DNA of 64,000 nt from an uncultured Gemmatimonadales bacterium (GTDB lineage Bacteria > Gemmatimonadota > Gemmatimonadetes > Longimicrobiales > RSA9). Positions within the stretch are counted from its first letter, which is position 1. Each line of letters opens with the position of its first letter. Of the stretch, positions 51,844-58,473 are shown one piece after another. The stretch covers positions 4,960,001 through 5,024,000 of the forward strand of contig OY970192.1 in assembly GCA_963708135.1 (NCBI GenBank). The letters are read 5' to 3'. The notes under the pieces are model-generated. The model searched no databases. It was not told the DNA's origin and saw only the letters and a program-made list of their open reading frames with translations. The position numbers were made by a program, and so were the translations under genes.

Positions 51844-52494
51844 ATGCCGAAGCCGACGCAGAAGGAGATCGCCCGCGCGCTGCTCGAGCGCCATGGCAGG
51901 ACGTTCGCCGCGGAGCTCGGCATCCGCATCGAGCGGACCACCCCCTCGCCCCTGTTCCGCCTGCTCTGCGCCGCGCTCCTCTTCAGCGCGCGCATCGGCG
52001 CCGATCTGGCCCTCGCGGCCGCGCGGGCGCTGGCCGATGCCGGGTGGACCACGCCGCGCAAGATGGCGGATGCCACCTGGGCGAGGCGCACGAAGGTGCT
52101 CAACCGGGCCGGCTACGCGCGCTATGACGAGAGCACGTCGCGCATGCTCGAGGACACGTCCGAGCTGCTGCTCGAGAAGTACCGCGGCGACCTGCGGAAG
52201 CTGCGCGAGGCCGCCGCGCGCGACCCCGTCGAGGAGGCCCGGCTGCTCCAGGAGTTCAAGGGCATCGGCCCCGTGGGCGCGGCCATCTTCCTCAGGGAGG
52301 TGCAGGGCGCCTGGGACGAGGTCTACCCGTTCGTGGACGACCCTGCCCGCGACGGCGCCCGGGCGCTGGGCCTGCCCACCGACGCCGCGTCGCTGGCGAA
52401 GCTGGTCTCCCGCGCCGACTTTCCCCGCCTCGTGGCCGCCCTCGTGCGCACCCGCCTGGCCGGCGACGCCGATGAGGTGCTCGCCGCCGCCTGA
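51844..52494 (+). CDS. HhH-GPD-like putative endonuclease/DNA glycosylase
   Basis: GGAGGAG RBS; PLFRLLCAALLFSARI, GYARYDE, HhH motif FKGIGPVGA. Confidence 0.7.
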   Translation: MPKPTQKEIARALLERHGRTFAAELGIRIERTTPSPLFRLLCAALLFSARIGADLALAAARALADAGWTTPRKMADATWARRTKVLNRAGYARYDESTSRMLEDTSELLLEKYRGDLRKLREAAARDPVEEARLLQEFKGIGPVGAAIFLREVQGAWDEVYPFVDDPARDGARALGLPTDAASLAKLVSRADFPRLVAALVRTRLAGDADEVLAAA

Positions 52495-52578
52495 GCCACC
52501 GCGCGTGAGGCTGAATGCGTCCTGTCCGCGCCGGATCGTCGCGCGCCGTCCGCGCCGCATCGGCCCGCGAGGGGAGGA

Positions 52579-52743
52579 AAGTCCCCACGCGTCGGCCCTT
52601 GAATCGACGATTGGGGACTTGACTGCGAATAGCGCGGCAAAGTCCCCAATCGTTCCCATGGTCCTGCGGCCCGTGGGGAGTTGACAACGAATAGCGCGGT
52701 CAACTCCCCAACCGTCGCCGAGCCGGGGCACGCGTGGGGAGTT
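52579..52743. repeat. Nested inverted-repeat (REP-like) element
   Basis: Perfect stems 52607-52620/52640-52653 and 52674-52685/52699-52710 inside outer pair 52582-52592/52730-52740. Confidence 0.8.
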
Positions 52744-52874
52744 CACGGCGGCCGGCGCACGCAGCGGCCGGGGCCCTGGCCGGCGCGACGCCGAACGGAT
52801 CCGCGACCCGGGGTGGGCGGGGCCGCGTGGGCCTGAATCCCGCCGCCGCGCGCGTGCTCCCACCCCGCAATCGC

Positions 52875-53927
52875 CTAGTCGTCCTGGTCAGCCGTGACGC
52901 CTTCGACGAGCGGAATCACCTCCTGCGCGAAGCGCTGCATCTCCTCCAGCTGTGGCGAGAACTGGAGGAGCAGCAGGTCGAGGCCGGCGTCCTCGAACGC
53001 GCGGATCCGCTCGGCGATCTGCTCGGGCGTGCCCACGAGCCCGCTGCGGAGCCCGCGGTTGGAGACCGAGTAGTCCTGGAGCGAGATGCGCTGCTCGAGC
53101 TTGGTGTTGCCGATCCAGTCCTGGTAGTTGGCGTAGCCGCGCGAGCTCTGGCGCACGTCGGTGATGCGCTCGACCTCGCGCGCGGCCTCCGCCTCCGTCG
53201 CCCGGCAGACCACGAAGCCGGCCGCGCCGAACGTGAGCGGCGCGAGGCCCTCGTGCACTGCCCGCCGCGCCCGCATGTCGGCGACCTTCGCCGCGATGCG
53301 CTCGGGCGGATCGCCGTGCATGACGTAGGCGTCGCAGGCCCGGGCGATGAGGGACTTGCCCGCTTCCGACTCGCCGCCGGCGTAGATGGTCGGGCGAGGT
53401 CGCCGCACCGGCTTCGGCTCGAGCGCCGTGTCCTCGACCGTATAGTACTTCCCCTCGTAGGAGAAGCGCGGCTGCTTCCACACGCCATCGACCACGTCGA
53501 GCCACTCGGCGGTGCGCGCGTAGCGATCGTCGTGCGGATCGAACTGTACGCCGTACTTGCGGGCCTCCGTTGCCCACCAGGCGGAGACGACGTTGAGCGC
53601 CAGCCGGCCGCCCGAGATGTGGTCGATGCAGGCCGCCTGCTTGGCGAGCAGCGCGGGCTGATGGAACGTGGGCCTCACGGCGACCATGAGCTCGAGCCGC
53701 TCCGTGACCGCCGCCAGCGCCGCGGCGGTCGTCCACGCGTCCAGCGAGGGCGCGTCCTCGCCCTTGATGTCGTTCAGGTTGAGCTCGGCGATGAGGGTCA
53801 GGTCGAAGCCGATCTGCTCGCTCGTACGGGCGAGGCGGGCGACGTAGTCCCACGTCGCCTGCATCCGCTCGTCCTCGACGTTCCGCAGCCAGCCGCCGAA
53901 TACCGGGAGCCAGTAGCCGTATCGCAT
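52875..53927 (-). CDS. LLM-class flavin-dependent monooxygenase (SsuD/SfnG-like)
   Basis: MRYGYWLPVFGGW, LAAVTERLELMVAVRP, GGRLALNVVS, YAGGES, LVGTPEQIA. Confidence 0.85.
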   Translation of the reverse strand: MRYGYWLPVFGGWLRNVEDERMQATWDYVARLARTSEQIGFDLTLIAELNLNDIKGEDAPSLDAWTTAAALAAVTERLELMVAVRPTFHQPALLAKQAACIDHISGGRLALNVVSAWWATEARKYGVQFDPHDDRYARTAEWLDVVDGVWKQPRFSYEGKYYTVEDTALEPKPVRRPRPTIYAGGESEAGKSLIARACDAYVMHGDPPERIAAKVADMRARRAVHEGLAPLTFGAAGFVVCRATEAEAAREVERITDVRQSSRGYANYQDWIGNTKLEQRISLQDYSVSNRGLRSGLVGTPEQIAERIRAFEDAGLDLLLLQFSPQLEEMQRFAQEVIPLVEGVTADQDD

Positions 53928-54889
53928 CACGCCGCCTCCCGCTCGAGCCAGTCCACGAGCCGCGCGAACGGGTCGAAGCCGACGACGCGCGGCGCGTCCG
54001 CCACGAAGTTCGAGAGCGCGTTCACGTCGTAGTAGACGAGCCGGTCGTCGCGCGCATCGACCATGTACTCGACGCCGCCGATCTCGATGCCCGCCGCGTC
54101 CATGATCCGCTCGACCGCGGCCACGACCTCGGGCGGCGGCTCGTAGCCCTCGACGCGCAGCCCGTTCTTCGGCGCATCGACCGCGCAGGCGGCGCGGGCG
54201 AGCTCCGCGCCGCCCACGGTCTGGCAGACGTCCGCGGGGCAGAGGTTGAAGGAGTCGCCGTCGGTGTAGATGCGGATGGCATAGAGGTAGCGCCCGCCCA
54301 GCACCTCGACACGCACGATGCGGCCGTCCTTCGCCGGGACGTACTCCTGCACGAGCGCGGTCGAGTCGATGCCCAGGTCGATCGCCCCCGCGGCGGCCGC
54401 CGCGGCGAGCTGCGCGGGCGTGTCGAAGCGCACGATGCCCGCGCCGCTGCCGCCGATGTTCGGCTTGACGACCACGGGGAAGCGCAGTCCCTCGGCCGCC
54501 GCGGTCGCGCGGCGGGGATCGCTGATCACTCTCGCCTTCGGGAAGGGCAGCCCCAGCTCCGCCAGCAGGTCGAGCTGGCGCGCCTTCGACAGCTCCGTCG
54601 TGAACGCGCGGTGGCCGTTCACCACCCGCACGCCGTGCCGCTCCAGGTGCGCCAGGTAGTGCAGCGTGTAGAAGATCGCCCGGCCGCGGCCGCGCAGATA
54701 CGCGGACGGGCTCATGCGGTTGAACACCAGCGCGTACGGCGGCGGCCCGTCGGACGGCTCGAAGAGGTGCTCGTCCGTGTGCAGCCGGACGTGCGGAATG
54801 CCCCGCCGCTCCAGCTCCGCGAAGAGCGGCTTGAACCAGTCCGGGTGCTCGTAGTAGACCGCCAGCGGGCGGCTCTCGGTGATCGGCAT
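53927..54889 (-). CDS. RimK-like ATP-grasp ligase
   Basis: FPVVVKPNIGGSGAGI, LVQEYVP, IGGVEY, YDVNALSNF; TGATG coupling to the LLM gene. Confidence 0.85.
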   Translation of the reverse strand: MPITESRPLAVYYEHPDWFKPLFAELERRGIPHVRLHTDEHLFEPSDGPPPYALVFNRMSPSAYLRGRGRAIFYTLHYLAHLERHGVRVVNGHRAFTTELSKARQLDLLAELGLPFPKARVISDPRRATAAAEGLRFPVVVKPNIGGSGAGIVRFDTPAQLAAAAAAGAIDLGIDSTALVQEYVPAKDGRIVRVEVLGGRYLYAIRIYTDGDSFNLCPADVCQTVGGAELARAACAVDAPKNGLRVEGYEPPPEVVAAVERIMDAAGIEIGGVEYMVDARDDRLVYYDVNALSNFVADAPRVVGFDPFARLVDWLEREAA

Positions 54890-54902
54890 GGGCTCCTGGG
54901 GG

Positions 54903-54942
54903 CTCGGGTTCGGGACTCGGGACTCGGGATTCGGGACTCGGA
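54903..54942. repeat. Heptamer tandem repeat (TCGGGAC-like)
   Basis: CTCGGGTTCGGGACTCGGGACTCGGGATTCGGGACTCGGA. Confidence 0.7.
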
Positions 54943-54946
54943 CACG

Positions 54947-54984
54947 AAAAAAAACCCGGCCCTCTCGCGGGGAGAGGGCCGGGT
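54947..54984 (-). terminator. Intrinsic terminator inside the 5' leader (attenuator 3:4 stem)
   Basis: Minus strand ACCCGGCCCTCTC-CCCGC-GAGAGGGCCGGG followed by 8 T. Confidence 0.9.
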
Positions 54985-55006
54985 CGGTCCGCCGAGCTTC
55001 GCTCGG

Positions 55007-55120
55007 CTAGCGCATGCCACCCGCACGCGCGCCGCCCGTCTCTCCCACGGGAGAGCCGCGCATGCACATGCAACACGCGCACATGGGCAGGGCGTTCGGC
55101 GTTCGGTGGCTTCCGTTCAT
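55007..55120 (-). CDS. Cys/Met-rich attenuator leader peptide (37 aa)
   Basis: MNGSHRTPNALPMCACCMCMRGSPVGETGGARAGGMR*; 7 of 8 consecutive codons (55061-55084) are Cys or Met; stop lies 22 nt before the terminator stem. Confidence 0.8.
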   Translation of the reverse strand: MNGSHRTPNALPMCACCMCMRGSPVGETGGARAGGMR

Positions 55121-55160
55121 GATCGCTCGGGTTCGATGGACACCACGGGCACGGCCGACC

Positions 55161-55189
55161 ATTCTCGCGAATCCTGGTCGCCGGCGCAA
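55161..55189 (-). promoter_or_regulatory. Putative sigma70 promoter of the leader (TTGCGC-N17-GAGAAT)
   Basis: -35 at 55184-55189, -10 at 55161-55166, 17-nt spacer. Confidence 0.45.
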
Positions 55190-55221
55190 GGTTCCGCGAG
55201 GCGACGTCGCCTCGTGGCCGT

Positions 55222-56877
55222 CTACTTCTCGAGTGTTCCGACCGCGCCACCGCCCGCGACGGGGGGGGCGCTCCGGGGCACCGCGCGCATTGCGGCGCTC
55301 GTCGTGGTCGCGTTCTGCTGCGTGGTCAACGCGCCGAGCGTGCCGTCGTTCGCGAGGTTGAAGACCACCGACGCGAAGGCCCTGGACACGGTCTCGAGCA
55401 CGTCTGGATCGTTGTCGTCGAGGTTGTCGCACCACAGGAAGGGCCGATCCACGCACCCGCCATCGGTGCTCGGGATGTTGCCCTCGTAGTTGCCCGTGGA
55501 GCCGCCGAACAGGTCGACATCCGCTTGCGGCTTGCAGCAGTCCTGCCCGGTCAGGATGCCGGTGTTGGGCACGCCGACGAGGCCGAAGGAATAGGAGTCG
55601 GTGCCGATGCTGCTCCGGTACTCGAAGGGCAGCCCCATCCGGGTGAAGTAGCTCGCGAAGTAGTCGTTGCCGACCTTCGACCCCGGAATCACGTTGGGCG
55701 GGAACTTGGTCTGGGAGTTTGCGGGATCCGCAATGGCGTACACGTAGTTCGGCGTCGCGGTGACGTCGGCATCGACATCGAAGGCGATCCTGGCGAGCTC
55801 GTCCGCCGGGAGGTGCCTCGTGTAGTATACGGATCCGAACAATCCCAGCTCCTCGCCGCCGAACCAGATGTAGCGCAGCTGATTGCGGGTCCTCGTGTTC
55901 GCCATCCTGAGCGCGATCTCGAGGATCGTGGCCGACCCGGAGGCGTTGTCGAGCATCCCCGCCCCGTAGATGGCGTCGAGGTGCGCATCGACCACGACCA
56001 CGTGACTCGAATCGCCGTACGGCGAGTCGGCGATCAGGTTGTAGTCCTCCCGATTGGGATCGATGATCGACTTGACCTCCAGGTGTACCGTGACCGGGCC
56101 CGATTTCGCCTGTGAATCGAGGCTGTCCCCAACGGCGTAGGAGGCCAGGCAGACGACGGGTACGCCGTGATCCTGGAGTCCACACCAGGTGCCTGCCGCG
56201 GTGCGCCCGGTCTGGCCCTCGTTGAAGATGATCACGCCGGATGCCTTCGCCGCGACCGCCAGCGTCACCTTCTGATCGAAGGTGCAGGTCCCCCGCTGTA
56301 CGAGGGCGATGTTGCCCGGCGGGAAACCCGTGAAATCCGACGCGCTGCACCCGCTGGCCGAGCTCGGGCTCGCCGTCGCGGGTATGACAATGCCCCCGGC
56401 CGGCGTGATCGCGGCCGTCACATCGCCATCGCCGGAGCCGGCCTGCACGGCGAAATCCGACGGCAGCCTGAAGTCCCGTGCAGTCGGCGAGACCTCGGCG
56501 AAGGCCGGCGTGCCGTCCAGCGCCGTGTACGGGAAGGTGTAGCTCTGGATCGTCACCCTGTAGCCGGCGTCGCGCATCAGGCCGGCGACGTAGTTGACGG
56601 ACGCCAGGTACCCCGGCTCGCCGGAATTGCGCGAGGCGTGCCCGTCGGGGCCGGGGTTGGCATCCGCGATCTGCTGGAACGTCACCATGTGCGCCCAGAG
56701 CTCGTCCTTGTTGATGGATGCGAGGAGCCTGGACTCCGCGCTGTCGCGAGCGGCGCTCGTGGTGTCCACGACCGTGGTGTCGCCGCCCGGGGGCTGCGCC
56801 GTGTCCGTAATCGTGGGCGCGCGGTCGCAGCCGACGAGAGCGAGCACCGCCACGGCGGTCAGGAATCTATTCGACAT
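55222..56877 (-). CDS. M28 aminopeptidase with PA domain (lipoprotein)
   Basis: Lipobox LVGC, PA domain (SGCSASDF, IALVQRGTCTF), AHLD, DNASGS, GEELGL. Confidence 0.85.
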   Translation of the reverse strand: MSNRFLTAVAVLALVGCDRAPTITDTAQPPGGDTTVVDTTSAARDSAESRLLASINKDELWAHMVTFQQIADANPGPDGHASRNSGEPGYLASVNYVAGLMRDAGYRVTIQSYTFPYTALDGTPAFAEVSPTARDFRLPSDFAVQAGSGDGDVTAAITPAGGIVIPATASPSSASGCSASDFTGFPPGNIALVQRGTCTFDQKVTLAVAAKASGVIIFNEGQTGRTAAGTWCGLQDHGVPVVCLASYAVGDSLDSQAKSGPVTVHLEVKSIIDPNREDYNLIADSPYGDSSHVVVVDAHLDAIYGAGMLDNASGSATILEIALRMANTRTRNQLRYIWFGGEELGLFGSVYYTRHLPADELARIAFDVDADVTATPNYVYAIADPANSQTKFPPNVIPGSKVGNDYFASYFTRMGLPFEYRSSIGTDSYSFGLVGVPNTGILTGQDCCKPQADVDLFGGSTGNYEGNIPSTDGGCVDRPFLWCDNLDDNDPDVLETVSRAFASVVFNLANDGTLGALTTQQNATTTSAAMRAVPRSAPPVAGGGAVGTLEK

Positions 56878-57030
56878 GAAGCTCACTTGAAGAGGATCGA
56901 CGACCGCACGCCTGTCCCGTGGAGTGGGCGCCCCGAGGACGCTTGAATCTACGGCCGGGGTGGGCACATTGTTCCGCACGCGGCCCGTCCGCCGCGGCGC
57001 TGGGGATGGAGTAGCGAAGCGGCGCCGTGT

Positions 57031-58473
57031 TCAGCCGAGCGAGGCTTCGCACGCGCGCGCGAGTGCCCGGACGAACCCCGCGCTGTGATCCGTGCCCATC
57101 CGCGTGGCCGTGCCCGAGTCCGAGGACCCCGATCCCGACGCCGCGCCCCCCGAGCCCCGACCCCCGAGTCCCGCATCCCGCTCCGCAGCCAGGAACGGAT
57201 CCATCACCGTGGACCGGAGCACCACCAGCCCCTCCGGCCCGCTGGCCTTCCACTCCTCGGGCGTGCACACGCCGAGCCGCTCGAGCACCGGGTCCACCGC
57301 GCCGTCGTACATCGGCGTCTGGAACCGGGTGCGGGTGATGATGTAGTCGGGCGCCGCGCCCGGCCGGCCGAGCGACATCTGCGCGTAGATCCGCTCGTTG
57401 AGCCCGTTCAGCTCCTCGAGCGAGTTGAGCGAGGGGTGCGCCACCACCCAGCAGACGATGTTGATGTCGGGCTCGGGCAGCAGCACGAGGTGGAACTCGC
57501 CGAGATCCTCGTCCGCCAGCGCGCCGTAGAGCAGTCGCGCCCCGGGGTCGATGGCCACGAGCTGGCGCGCGCGCCGCTCCTTCAGCAGGAACGCGCCGGC
57601 CGGGTAGGGGATGTAGCCGAGCTTGTGCGGGTCGATCGTCACGCTGTCCGCCTCGCCCAGCGCCGCCACGCCGGCCACCCACTCGTCGCTCGGCCAGTCG
57701 GTGCCCATCTCGGCGCGGATCTCTTCCGCAGGGCGACGTCGCCCTTCCGCGTTACGCGTGACCGCCGCCGCGTAGCCGCCGTACGCCGCGTCCGAGTGGA
57801 TATGGTAGCTGACGCCGAGCTCGCGCTCCGCGCGGCGGCGCACCTCGAGCACGAGGTCGAGCCGGTCCACGGCGCTCTCCTCCGTCGTGCCGCACACGCT
57901 CACGCACGCCTGGATCGGCACGCGCCGCTCCGTCAGGCGGAGCACCGTCCGCCACAGAGCGTCCGGGTCCATGCGGTAGCGCACGTCCACGGGGACGTAG
58001 ACGAGCTGGTTCGAGCCGATGCCGAGGGCGCGCACGATCTTCTCCCAGGAGTAGTGCGCGGTGGCGGCGACGAGCACGACGCCCGCGGGCAGCGGGTCCC
58101 CGAAGGCGGCGGTGAGACGTCGCATGTACTCCTGGTAGCCGAGGGCGTTCAGCGAGTGCTCGTGCAGGGCGCGCTTCACGTCGGCCGGCGGCGCGGAGGC
58201 CCACAGCGCGCCCCACAGGTCGAGCGTGGCCGCGTTGGAGATGTTGAGCAGCTCCCAGAGCCCGAGCCGGTCCAGCCGTTCGCGGCCGCCGCCCGGCACG
58301 TCCACCTCGAGCGTGACGCCGAGTGCCTGCGCCGCGCCGGAGGCGGCTACCGGCAGGTAGGCGAGGTTGCGCGCGATCCAGAGCGCCTCGAGGTGACGGG
58401 CGAGGCCTCGATGGCCACGTTGCGGTCCCAGGAACCACGCGTAGAGCGCCTCGCGGGTGTCGTCCGTCGTCAT
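57031..58473 (-). pseudogene. Group II PLP-dependent decarboxylase (tyrosine decarboxylase-like), internally deleted
   Basis: AWFLGP, EALWIARN, HYSWEK, GTTEESAVD, HSDAAYGGY, DPHKLGY present, but large conserved blocks appear missing and NVAIEASPVT lies in another frame. Confidence 0.7.

Follow-up and report, generated by a model that had tools for sequence, protein, structure and literature searches.

Transcription attenuation by leader peptides is a textbook mode of amino acid regulation, and to our knowledge no sulfur amino acid figures among its standard cases (Trp, His, Leu, Thr, Phe and Ile/Val). Terminator-based control in cis of metY/metX-type genes is exerted in other bacteria by S-adenosylmethionine (SAM) riboswitches, methionine (Met) and cysteine (Cys) T-boxes and S-box regulons. 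Among leader peptides, polycysteine leaderless short open reading frames (sORFs) of mycobacteria respond to Cys, a stalled ribosome being reported to free a sequestered ribosome-binding site, a translational mechanism (Canestrari et al., bioRxiv, 10.1101/834739). An earlier comparative analysis (Seliverstov et al. 2005, PMC1262725) predicts leader peptides for Cys in Actinobacteria and describes them as ‘without obvious terminators’. Cys or Met leaders go unmentioned in the relevant passages of a survey of premature terminators (PMC2965389). In the literature searched, outside which most subscription journals lie, we found neither a published terminator-based Cys or Met leader-peptide attenuator, the absence of which is not thereby proven, nor published leader-peptide attenuation in Gemmatimonadota.

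Here we describe a leader in DNA of an uncultured Gemmatimonadales bacterium (GenBank assembly GCA_963708135.1, contig OY970192.1, positions 4,960,001 to 5,024,000), referred to below as the window, which is 64,000 nucleotides long and has a G+C content of 73%; the record titles of relatives of its genes name Gemmatimonadales and other Gemmatimonadota. The leader lies on the minus strand, as do all window features given below, and precedes the genes of a RimK-like ATP-grasp ligase and of a monooxygenase resembling the dimethylsulfone monooxygenase SfnG. On entirely computational support, we put at about 80% the probability that it is a ribosome-mediated leader-peptide transcription attenuator for this ATP-grasp/SfnG-like operon. 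Such an attenuator would make the operon depend on how much charged tRNA-Cys is available and, probably, in the window copy also on charged tRNA-Met.

Anatomy and conservation of the leader

The leader ORF runs from ATG 55120-55118 to TAG 55011-55009, comprises 37 codons plus the stop and encodes MNGSHRTPNALPMCACCMCMRGSPVGETGGARAGGMR. Its control codons 13-20 (55084-55061), read from the sequence as ATG TGC GCG TGT TGC ATG TGC ATG, agree base for base with the MCACCMCM stretch that a first-pass annotation of this DNA had placed in a 37-residue minus-strand ORF. Seven of these eight consecutive codons specify Cys or Met (4 Cys, 3 Met and 1 Ala), with consecutive Cys at codons 16-17, and the start codon, the Cys/Met run and a stop ahead of the terminator are kept in relatives.

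The RNA segments 1, 2 and 3 and the terminal run of eight U (U8) proposed in that annotation were all verified on the minus strand. Segment 1, CUCUCCC (55055-55049), together with its 5′ extension GCAUGCGCG occupies 55049-55065, overlaps the last control codons and forms the 5′ arm of hairpin 1:2; the 3′ arm is segment 2, GGGAGAG (55046-55040), with flanking CGU and ACGGGCGGCG (55030-55049), which also constitutes the 5′ strand of the antiterminator. The extension of helix 1:2 that had been claimed to include the last control codons, in which GCAUGCGCG pairs with CGCGCGUGC through one G-U pair among the others, is present in the minimum-energy fold, and the extended hairpin has an energy of -25.0 kcal/mol. 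Segment 3, CUCUCCC (54976-54970), is situated in the 5′ arm of an intrinsic terminator (54947-54985) and runs into its loop. This terminator consists of a 5′ arm at 54984-54972, a loop at 54971-54967, a 3′ arm (segment 4) at 54966-54954 and the U8 tract at 54954-54947, and its stem (54985-54953) contains 14 pairs, 10 of them G-C, at -30.0 to -31.8 kcal/mol. Segment 2 had been described as able to pair with either segment 1 or segment 3, and both pairings were found, but the antiterminator exceeds 7 bp: the duplex of segment 2 with the terminator 5′ arm and loop extends over 55049-55030 against 54986-54966 at -22.7 to -26.1 kcal/mol and begins 13 nt past the last control nucleotide. For the whole 261-nt leader the folding energy is -135.2 kcal/mol (z = -3.2), a stability reached by 0/200 shuffled sequences. 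A permissive Rfam cmscan of 52000-58000 returned 5 weak matches, none of them to a leader family and none near the gathering score. Between segments 2 and 3 lies a small hairpin, GCCGAGC GAA GCUCGGC (54993-55009; -13.0 kcal/mol), which begins within the stop codon; although dispensable for a trp-style switch, this hairpin may act as a spacer, in pausing or in ribosome release.

Relatives of the ATP-grasp protein were found by tblastn at 20 places with 50-78% identity and at 5 places with 30-34% identity in 60 related genomes, and the monooxygenase gene adjoins the ATP-grasp gene in 19/21 orthologous loci, the window's own included. The expectation that Cys/Met-rich sORFs would be conserved upstream of ATP-grasp homologs was borne out in that a Cys-containing, Cys-rich sORF followed by a strong terminator was read by eye in 23/25 readable upstream regions (61 genomes); the exceptions are L014 and the non-orthologous L027 (loci are designated by L numbers), and two more upstream regions were too short or masked. 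At the five distant loci (family f2, 30-34% identity) another peptide (e.g. ...ATCTCRCSCPCIAWIRVC) and other stems are found in an unchanged layout. The leader peptides of relatives range from 23 to 55 residues and vary freely at the C-terminus. Among 80 public loci found by protein, a strict detector recorded sORF plus terminator in 22/52 from Gemmatimonadota, 10/23 from Acidobacteriota and 0/5 others, fractions that are lower bounds, known positives such as L003 and L019 having been missed. The ATP-grasp/SfnG-like gene pair itself occurs in more than 500 public genome stretches.

Many Gemmatimonadales loci show no leader within 1.5 kb upstream. At 13 others (L043, L046, L049, L053, L063, L069, L072, L074, L081-L083, L087 and L094) the leader stands ~670-730 nt upstream of the ATP-grasp gene, and the gene in between encodes an SsuE-like flavin mononucleotide (FMN) reductase dependent on nicotinamide adenine dinucleotide phosphate (NADPH) in 2/2 tested loci (L069 and L053). 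In L162, SsuE directly follows the leader. The fuller operon would then read SsuE / ATP-grasp / SfnG-like monooxygenase.

Antiterminator pairing and folding of the leader

For each leader, the most favourable upstream pairing site of the terminator 5′ arm plus loop was sought. In 22/23 leaders the best partner starts 5-30 nt past the last control codon, for which the expected fraction is 0.22, and the same position was obtained for 38/41 leaders of a wider set including those of metY and of Acidobacteriota. The favoured partner position falls just past the stretch that a ribosome would cover when stalled at the control codons, and it coincides with the 3′ arm of the next hairpin after these codons. 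Leaders pair with their own terminators at a mean of -20.95 kcal/mol, compared with -18.59 +/- 0.35 kcal/mol when the terminators are permuted among leaders, and 0/200 permutations were as good. The antiterminator complementarity is lineage-specific. Concerted changes of the two segments are also apparent by eye, with segment 2/segment 3 being GGGAGAG/CUCUCCC in the window, GGGAGU/ACUCCC in L008, GGAGCGGCC/GGCCGCUCC at one Terriglobia locus and GGAUCCGGGUG/GCCCGGGUCC in family f2.

A covariance model (R1) was built from 22 leaders; RNAalifold on the raw MAFFT alignment lost the terminator, the 3′ arms being misaligned, so the structure was supplied by hand. Covarying stems, which the first reading of the locus had anticipated, were found in a 63-sequence alignment, where 25/27 pairs of the terminated structure change on both sides and 89.9% of cells are paired, compared with 74.5% in column shuffles and 45-60% in slid registers. 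Helix 2 (hairpin 1:2) contributes 7 pairs, 6 with two-sided change and 88.3% of cells paired, and helix 4 (the terminator) 13 pairs, 12 with two-sided change and 93.4% of cells paired; helix 3 (the stop-codon hairpin) carries compensatory changes as well, e.g. G-C in 23 leaders and A-U in 15 of the 63 at one pair. The antiterminator columns are 77.6% paired, compared with 74.6 +/- 0.7% after shuffling (0/500) and 46-60% in slid registers.

Folding of the window's leader in the presence of a virtual ribosome agrees with part of the model. In RNA cut before segment 4, the antiterminator forms with 13-15 pairs when the ribosomal A site is on codons 12-21 and is gone (0 pairs) when the A site is on codons 22-29, where segment 2 is covered. 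In constrained folding, named earlier as a check on the attenuator, stalling at codons 12-21 allows 2:3 pairing in truncated RNA, but equilibrium folds give no off state. The model therefore depends on folding kinetics, in the usual sense that the local 1:2 hairpin has to arise before 2:3 and must not be displaced in time.

This and several further observations weigh against attenuation by the leader peptide, or against the detail in which it can be drawn. Full-length RNA keeps the terminator at equilibrium whichever codon is blocked, and truncated RNA forms 2:3 without a ribosome, or with a ribosome on the last sense codon beside the stop. A stall simulation beat a shuffled terminator arm clearly (≤3/60 shuffles as good) in 5/23 leaders only, and for the window leader 38/60 shuffled arms did as well; chance pairing comes easily to G+C-rich sequence. 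With an assumed footprint geometry, only the last two or three control codons would put a stalled ribosome over segment 1. The covariation of the antiterminator columns is modest because most of these columns are conserved rather than covarying, and the 63-sequence alignment was fitted to the model's own structure. The leader counts (22/23, 38/41 and the reading of upstream regions) include L017 and L018 from genomes flagged unpublished, while model R1 and alignment A3 were made without them. Finally, for the start codon, promoter and Shine-Dalgarno (SD) sequence of the leader there are at most candidates, the ATGs in question being those at 55120 and 55162.

As had been remarked at first reading, no strong SD sequence precedes ATG 55120. 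The alternative in-frame ATG at 55162-55160 has AGGA (55175-55172) 9 nt upstream, and a start there would lengthen the leader to 51 codons. Long leaders, of 47-55 codons, are likewise seen in the nearest relatives (L002, L032 and L040), and GGAG precedes the ATG in at least L002. The candidate promoter of the first-pass annotation did not hold up well: the weak pair TTGCGC (55189-55184), 17 nt, GAGAAT (55166-55161), spanning 55161-55189, matches 7/12 consensus positions, and a promoter scan of 54000-56000 found 0 sites. Much better boxes, TTGACG-17-TAnnnT, are seen by eye in several relatives, where 5-9 nt separate them from the leader ATG, so that these relatives appear to be leaderless. The window copy has no -10 box 5-9 nt ahead of ATG 55120, so leaderless status is without support here.

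Control codons, downstream genes and genomic setting

Elements of this kind are rare in the genome. In the six frames of its 5,445,952 bases, 12 windows of eight codons contain at least six Cys/Met codons including at least three Cys, and 2 of these 12 have a T6 run within 260 nt. Under looser rules, a Cys/Met-rich sORF that ends 15-130 nt upstream was found for 2 of the genome's 478 terminator-like sites, namely the window leader and a leader before metY-metX-hom. This second Cys/Met leader (G000:C1:4417739-4417891, minus strand) encodes MFARQAMVMCTCMCGSPVGEADGRARVPIASV and shows the same hairpin and terminator. The gene after it encodes the O-acetylhomoserine sulfhydrylase MetY (TIGR01326, 664 bits against a cut-off of 495), with matches to MetX and homoserine dehydrogenase too, and because the second site heads metY-metX-hom, the only two such elements of the genome precede a methionine/homocysteine operon and the SfnG-like operon. 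Orthologues of metY (~80% identity) have the leader at 9/11 loci. No RNA family was found at any leader when the metY, thrS and third-copy loci were searched with Rfam at gathering score, the sole match being a tRNA. The SAM-I riboswitch (RF00162) was not found in the genome, a search that did not extend to other SAM classes genome-wide.

The model scored 131.7 bits at the metY leader and 109.5 bits (E = 6.9e-24) at the window leader, itself among the 22 training leaders, and detected two weaker copies in this genome. In 100 related genomes plus this one, 74 matches to the same chassis of hairpins and terminator were obtained at E ≤ 0.001, spread over 49 genomes. For 70 of the 74, both sORF and downstream gene were read, the genes behind L150, L171, L175, L176, L178, L187 and L188 being unassigned. 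Downstream ORFs were picked automatically; at several G+C-rich loci the pick was out of frame and matched no family, L126 being the one locus where this was checked and put right. One weaker copy in this genome (L128, G000:C1:1416209-1416321, plus strand, 26.8 bits) has six consecutive Thr codons (MRAKRIRTTTTTTRPPSGGGG...) and precedes thrS (TIGR00418, 427 bits against a cut-off of 384); this leader is a predicted Thr-sensing attenuator on an aminoacyl-tRNA synthetase gene. The weak third copy (L126 1501-1639, G000:C1:5250100-5250238, minus strand, 36 bits) has an sORF without a clear codon run and lies 18 nt upstream of tRNA-Asn(GTT), after which follows a solA-like N-methyl-L-tryptophan oxidase gene (NF008425, 476 bits).

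Sister attenuators in related genomes (loci L159-L195 and L147-L155) carry other control codons on the same chassis. Runs rich in Phe/Tyr/Trp precede 3-deoxy-D-arabino-heptulosonate 7-phosphate (DAHP) synthase (L182 and L194), runs rich in Leu/Val/Ile precede leuA (L183, L186 and L192) and ilvB (L170), and a Val-rich run precedes valS (L191); a His run was found at L190, where the contig ends ahead of the gene. Met-only runs, with up to six consecutive AUG, stand before aspartate kinase (L159, L160, L165 and L172), homoserine dehydrogenase (L161 and L163) and metX (L155), and runs of mainly Met with one Cys before homoserine dehydrogenase (L181) and metX (L164 and L177). Mixed Cys/Met runs are associated with aspartate kinase (L154 and L157), metY, a ThrC-like enzyme dependent on pyridoxal phosphate (PLP) (L169, L173 and L179), a JAMM desampylase-like protein (L174) and MetN (L189), and Cys-dominant runs with SDF-family symporters (L168, L180 and L185), SsuE (L162) and the ATP-grasp operon. 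Control codons that change in step with the downstream pathway on a conserved chassis are hard to explain other than by ribosome-mediated attenuation. In an even sample across the phylum the chassis occurs in 7/151 genomes at E ≤ 1e-5, and it is therefore lineage-restricted, other lineages using other stems.

The first of the two regulated genes (54889-53927) encodes the RimK-like ATP-grasp ligase of 320 aa (PF08443; TIGR00768, 73 bits, below the cut-off), and its ribosome-binding site AGGAG (54897-54893) lies ~50 nt beyond the U-run, outside the folded leader. The start of the second (53927-52875) overlaps the ATP-grasp stop by 1 nt, and its product is a luciferase-like monooxygenase of 350 aa dependent on reduced FMN (FMNH2), of SfnG/SsuD-like type (PF00296, 223 bits). 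It comes closest to SfnG (TIGR04021, 259 bits, below the curated cut-off of 383), compared with 190 bits for the alkanesulfonate monooxygenase SsuD. The sulfur link of the operon consists of this monooxygenase, which scores below the family cut-off, and of the SsuE-like reductase in relatives; the operon is probably of a sulfur-scavenging type, as judged from these matches. A literature search on a pairing of ATP-grasp with SfnG-type enzymes gave no paper in which the term ATP-grasp occurs.

Upstream of the leader, an M28/PA-domain peptidase gene (55222-56979) has its 3′ end at 55222, and the intergenic stretch between it and the ATP-grasp gene measures 332 nt, after which the two overlapping genes follow. 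Farther upstream of the peptidase gene lies that of a PLP-dependent decarboxylase of the tyrosine-decarboxylase type (57031-58473, minus strand), with matches to PF21391 and PF00282 and to TIGR03811 at 166 bits, far under the cut-off. Between the terminator and the ATP-grasp ribosome-binding site, outside the switch model, a tandem 7-nt repeat occupies 54899-54941 (minus strand; plus-strand unit GGGACTC, 6.3 copies, 83% matches). Short tandem repeats of other kinds occur near the leaders of some relatives.

Proposed mechanism, alternatives and relation to known systems

The trp-style attenuation logic that the first-pass annotation had read into this leader is supported by conservation (23/25), the position of the antiterminator (22/23 and 38/41), the permuted pairing (0/200) and the match between codons and genes. 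From the anatomy, the conservation, the antiterminator with its position and lineage-specific complementarity, and the codon-gene match, all observed across the leader family, we infer that the sORF is translated, that ribosomes stall in it, that the segments fold in a kinetic order and that the switch responds to sulfur amino acids. When Cys and Met are plentiful, the ribosome would pass codons 13-20 and reach the stop at 55011-55009, segments 1 and 2 would re-pair behind it as a local hairpin, segments 3 and 4 would form the terminator, and RNA polymerase would halt at U8, ahead of the ATP-grasp gene. With Cys-tRNA or Met-tRNA in short supply, the last control codons would stall the ribosome with its footprint over segment 1, leaving segment 2 free as segment 3 emerges; 2:3 would then form first, the terminator would be blocked and transcription would enter the operon.

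How far Met takes part in this sensing is less settled than the part of Cys. ATP-grasp leaders (n = 31) have a mean of 4.0 Cys and 1.6 Met codons per run, with Cys in every one, and metY leaders (n = 8) a mean of 3.4 Cys and 3.6 Met. Of the Cys codons in the control runs of 39 leaders, 69/150 (46%) are the rare TGT, compared with 1/26 in seven genes of this genome; a bias towards rare codons is typical of attenuator control regions. Cys is the predicted constant input of the ATP-grasp operon leaders and Met a frequent second signal. It had been stated at first reading that the leader senses both sulfur amino acids, which is likely for the window copy but is not general, 6/31 ATP-grasp leaders having no Met codon in the run. 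These six leaders weigh against Met sensing as a general property; in addition, Met starvation would also restrict the charging of initiator tRNA and could blunt a Met response. Met-only runs occur on the same chassis, and therefore Met codons can act as a signal. In the window copy the Met codons stand at positions 13, 18 and 20, of which 18 and 20 are among those best placed to cover segment 1, and we somewhat favour the view that they contribute to sensing there. That the same mechanism works effectively as a Cys-only sensor, the Met codons being by-products of an AUGUGC-type repeat and its pairing (GCAUGC palindromes), is unlikely. Such a sensor would fit the presence of Cys in every leader of this operon type and the lack of Met in some, and the last control codons sit within the extended 1:2 helix, so RNA pairing constrains them too; but aspartate kinase, hom and metX have leaders with runs of Met alone (e.g. 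six AUG in a row), all 8 metY leaders carry 3-5 Met plus Cys, and the favourable placement of window codons 18 and 20 also speaks for Met.

Explanations that dispense with the ribosome as sensor fare less well. The conserved hairpins might serve as binding site for a small molecule (a riboswitch) or for a protein (an RNA-binding antiterminator), the sORF being incidental. The hairpin GCUCUCC..GGAGAG-GCGGACGGG is indeed highly conserved in sequence, beyond what pairing demands, and the lack of an Rfam match means that the database search leaves room for a novel ligand-binding class, but the same chassis precedes genes of at least six amino acid pathways with a codon run in conserved frame that changes with the pathway, and divergent leaders with other stem sequences (Acidobacteriota and family f2) still retain the start, the frame and a stop ahead of the terminator; we regard ligand binding as very improbable. 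A product of the sORF could instead matter in itself, either as a Cys-rich precursor of a peptide that ribosomes make and that is modified after translation (RiPP), matured by the ATP-grasp enzyme and the monooxygenase, or as a metal- or sulfur-binding peptide, with the terminator setting the ratio of precursor to enzyme transcript. A short Cys-rich ORF does lie immediately upstream of an ATP-grasp and an oxygenase gene, and the ligase gives a weak match to an ATP-grasp peptide maturase (TIGR04187, 32 bits), but the cut-off of that family is 350 and RimK/LysX-type ligases match better. Moreover, a paralogous leader stands before metY-metX-hom in the same genome and sister leaders before thrS, leuA, valS and DAHP synthase, the residues conserved outside the Cys/Met run coincide with an RNA hairpin, and length (23-55 residues) and C-terminus of the peptide are free to vary, which together make a functional peptide extremely improbable. 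The readings as RiPP precursor and as riboswitch are ruled out for practical purposes by codon runs that track the downstream genes on one chassis. As to chance, the hairpin and U8 might be the terminator of the M28 peptidase gene, which ends 236 nt upstream without another obvious terminator, and the sORF a random frame in G+C-rich DNA, spurious long ORFs being frequent in a window of 73% G+C. The element accompanies the ATP-grasp operon and metY and not the peptidase, however, no more than the 2 of 478 terminator-like sites counted in the genome have such an sORF, and the element matches at 109.5 bits a model from 22 leaders, the window's included; the probability of coincidence is next to negligible.

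Leader-peptide attenuation, as preferred here, opens a wider reading of the leader family on which we are evenly divided, namely that Gemmatimonadales run much of their amino acid metabolism via one modular ribosome-read chassis, re-coded by codon swaps (Thr, Val, Leu/Ile/Val, Phe/Tyr/Trp, His, Met-only, Cys-only and Cys/Met), with the sulfur branch as a graded ‘ribulon’ that includes a new salvage pathway. Met-only leaders would then govern ask, hom and metX, leaders of Met plus Cys would govern metY and the ThrC-like route, and Cys-dominant leaders would govern transporters and the SsuE / ATP-grasp / SfnG-like pathway. If this were true, that pathway would represent a new salvage route in which the ATP-grasp enzyme first ligates an organosulfur compound, from which sulfur or cysteine is then recovered. 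The attenuator, if true, would establish a sulfur regulon that needs no regulatory protein, and a terminator-based Cys/Met version would bring attenuation into sulfur metabolism and into soil phyla that have been little studied. It would also supply a signature for finding such regulons, that is, a codon run plus terminator with antiterminator geometry, and ‘induced by Cys/Met shortage’ as a functional label for the ATP-grasp/SfnG-like pair. Attenuation through Met codons would be of interest in itself, given the general knowledge that one synthetase serves initiator and elongator tRNA-Met. The earlier statement that no mixed Cys+Met attenuator had been described on this operon type or in this lineage stands unrefuted in the searchable literature.

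Compared with SAM riboswitches and T-boxes, the window and metY leaders match no Rfam family, and the signal would be read by the ribosome from codons. The mycobacterial sORF attenuators are related in logic, since pausing at Cys codons is described there as reporting the supply of Cys-tRNA and several sulfur operons are controlled at once, as a ‘ribulon’; likewise the leader stands before two or more operons of this genome and before additional ones in related genomes. The first-pass annotation had cited these polycysteine upstream ORFs as a precedent, and Cys-sensing sORFs do exist, but they are reported to act on translation and not via a terminator. The mycobacterial sORFs are leaderless and no conserved terminators are reported for them, whereas the leaders described here have a conserved intrinsic terminator plus antiterminator, the window copy is not clearly leaderless, Met codons are mixed in and the phylum is another.

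The likeness to the classical attenuators, i.e. the trpL, hisL, leuL, thrL, pheL and ilv leaders of Proteobacteria and the trp and ilvB leaders of Actinobacteria, is one of architecture. They too combine control codons clustered in a short ORF with an intrinsic terminator and an antiterminator that uses the terminator 5′ arm, and a segment by the control codons keeps the antiterminator sequestered as long as no stalled ribosome covers that segment. In sequence, the window leader is unrelated to Rfam's leader families (Trp_leader, His_leader, Leu_leader, Thr_leader and similar ones). In the trp leader the stop codon lies between segments 1 and 2, whereas the window ORF runs ~10 codons beyond segment 2 and ends in the third conserved hairpin, 23 nt before the terminator. 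What further sets this leader apart from the classical attenuators is its Cys/Met codons, its host in Gemmatimonadota and, in place of a biosynthetic operon, a gene pair with a monooxygenase of sulfur-scavenging type.

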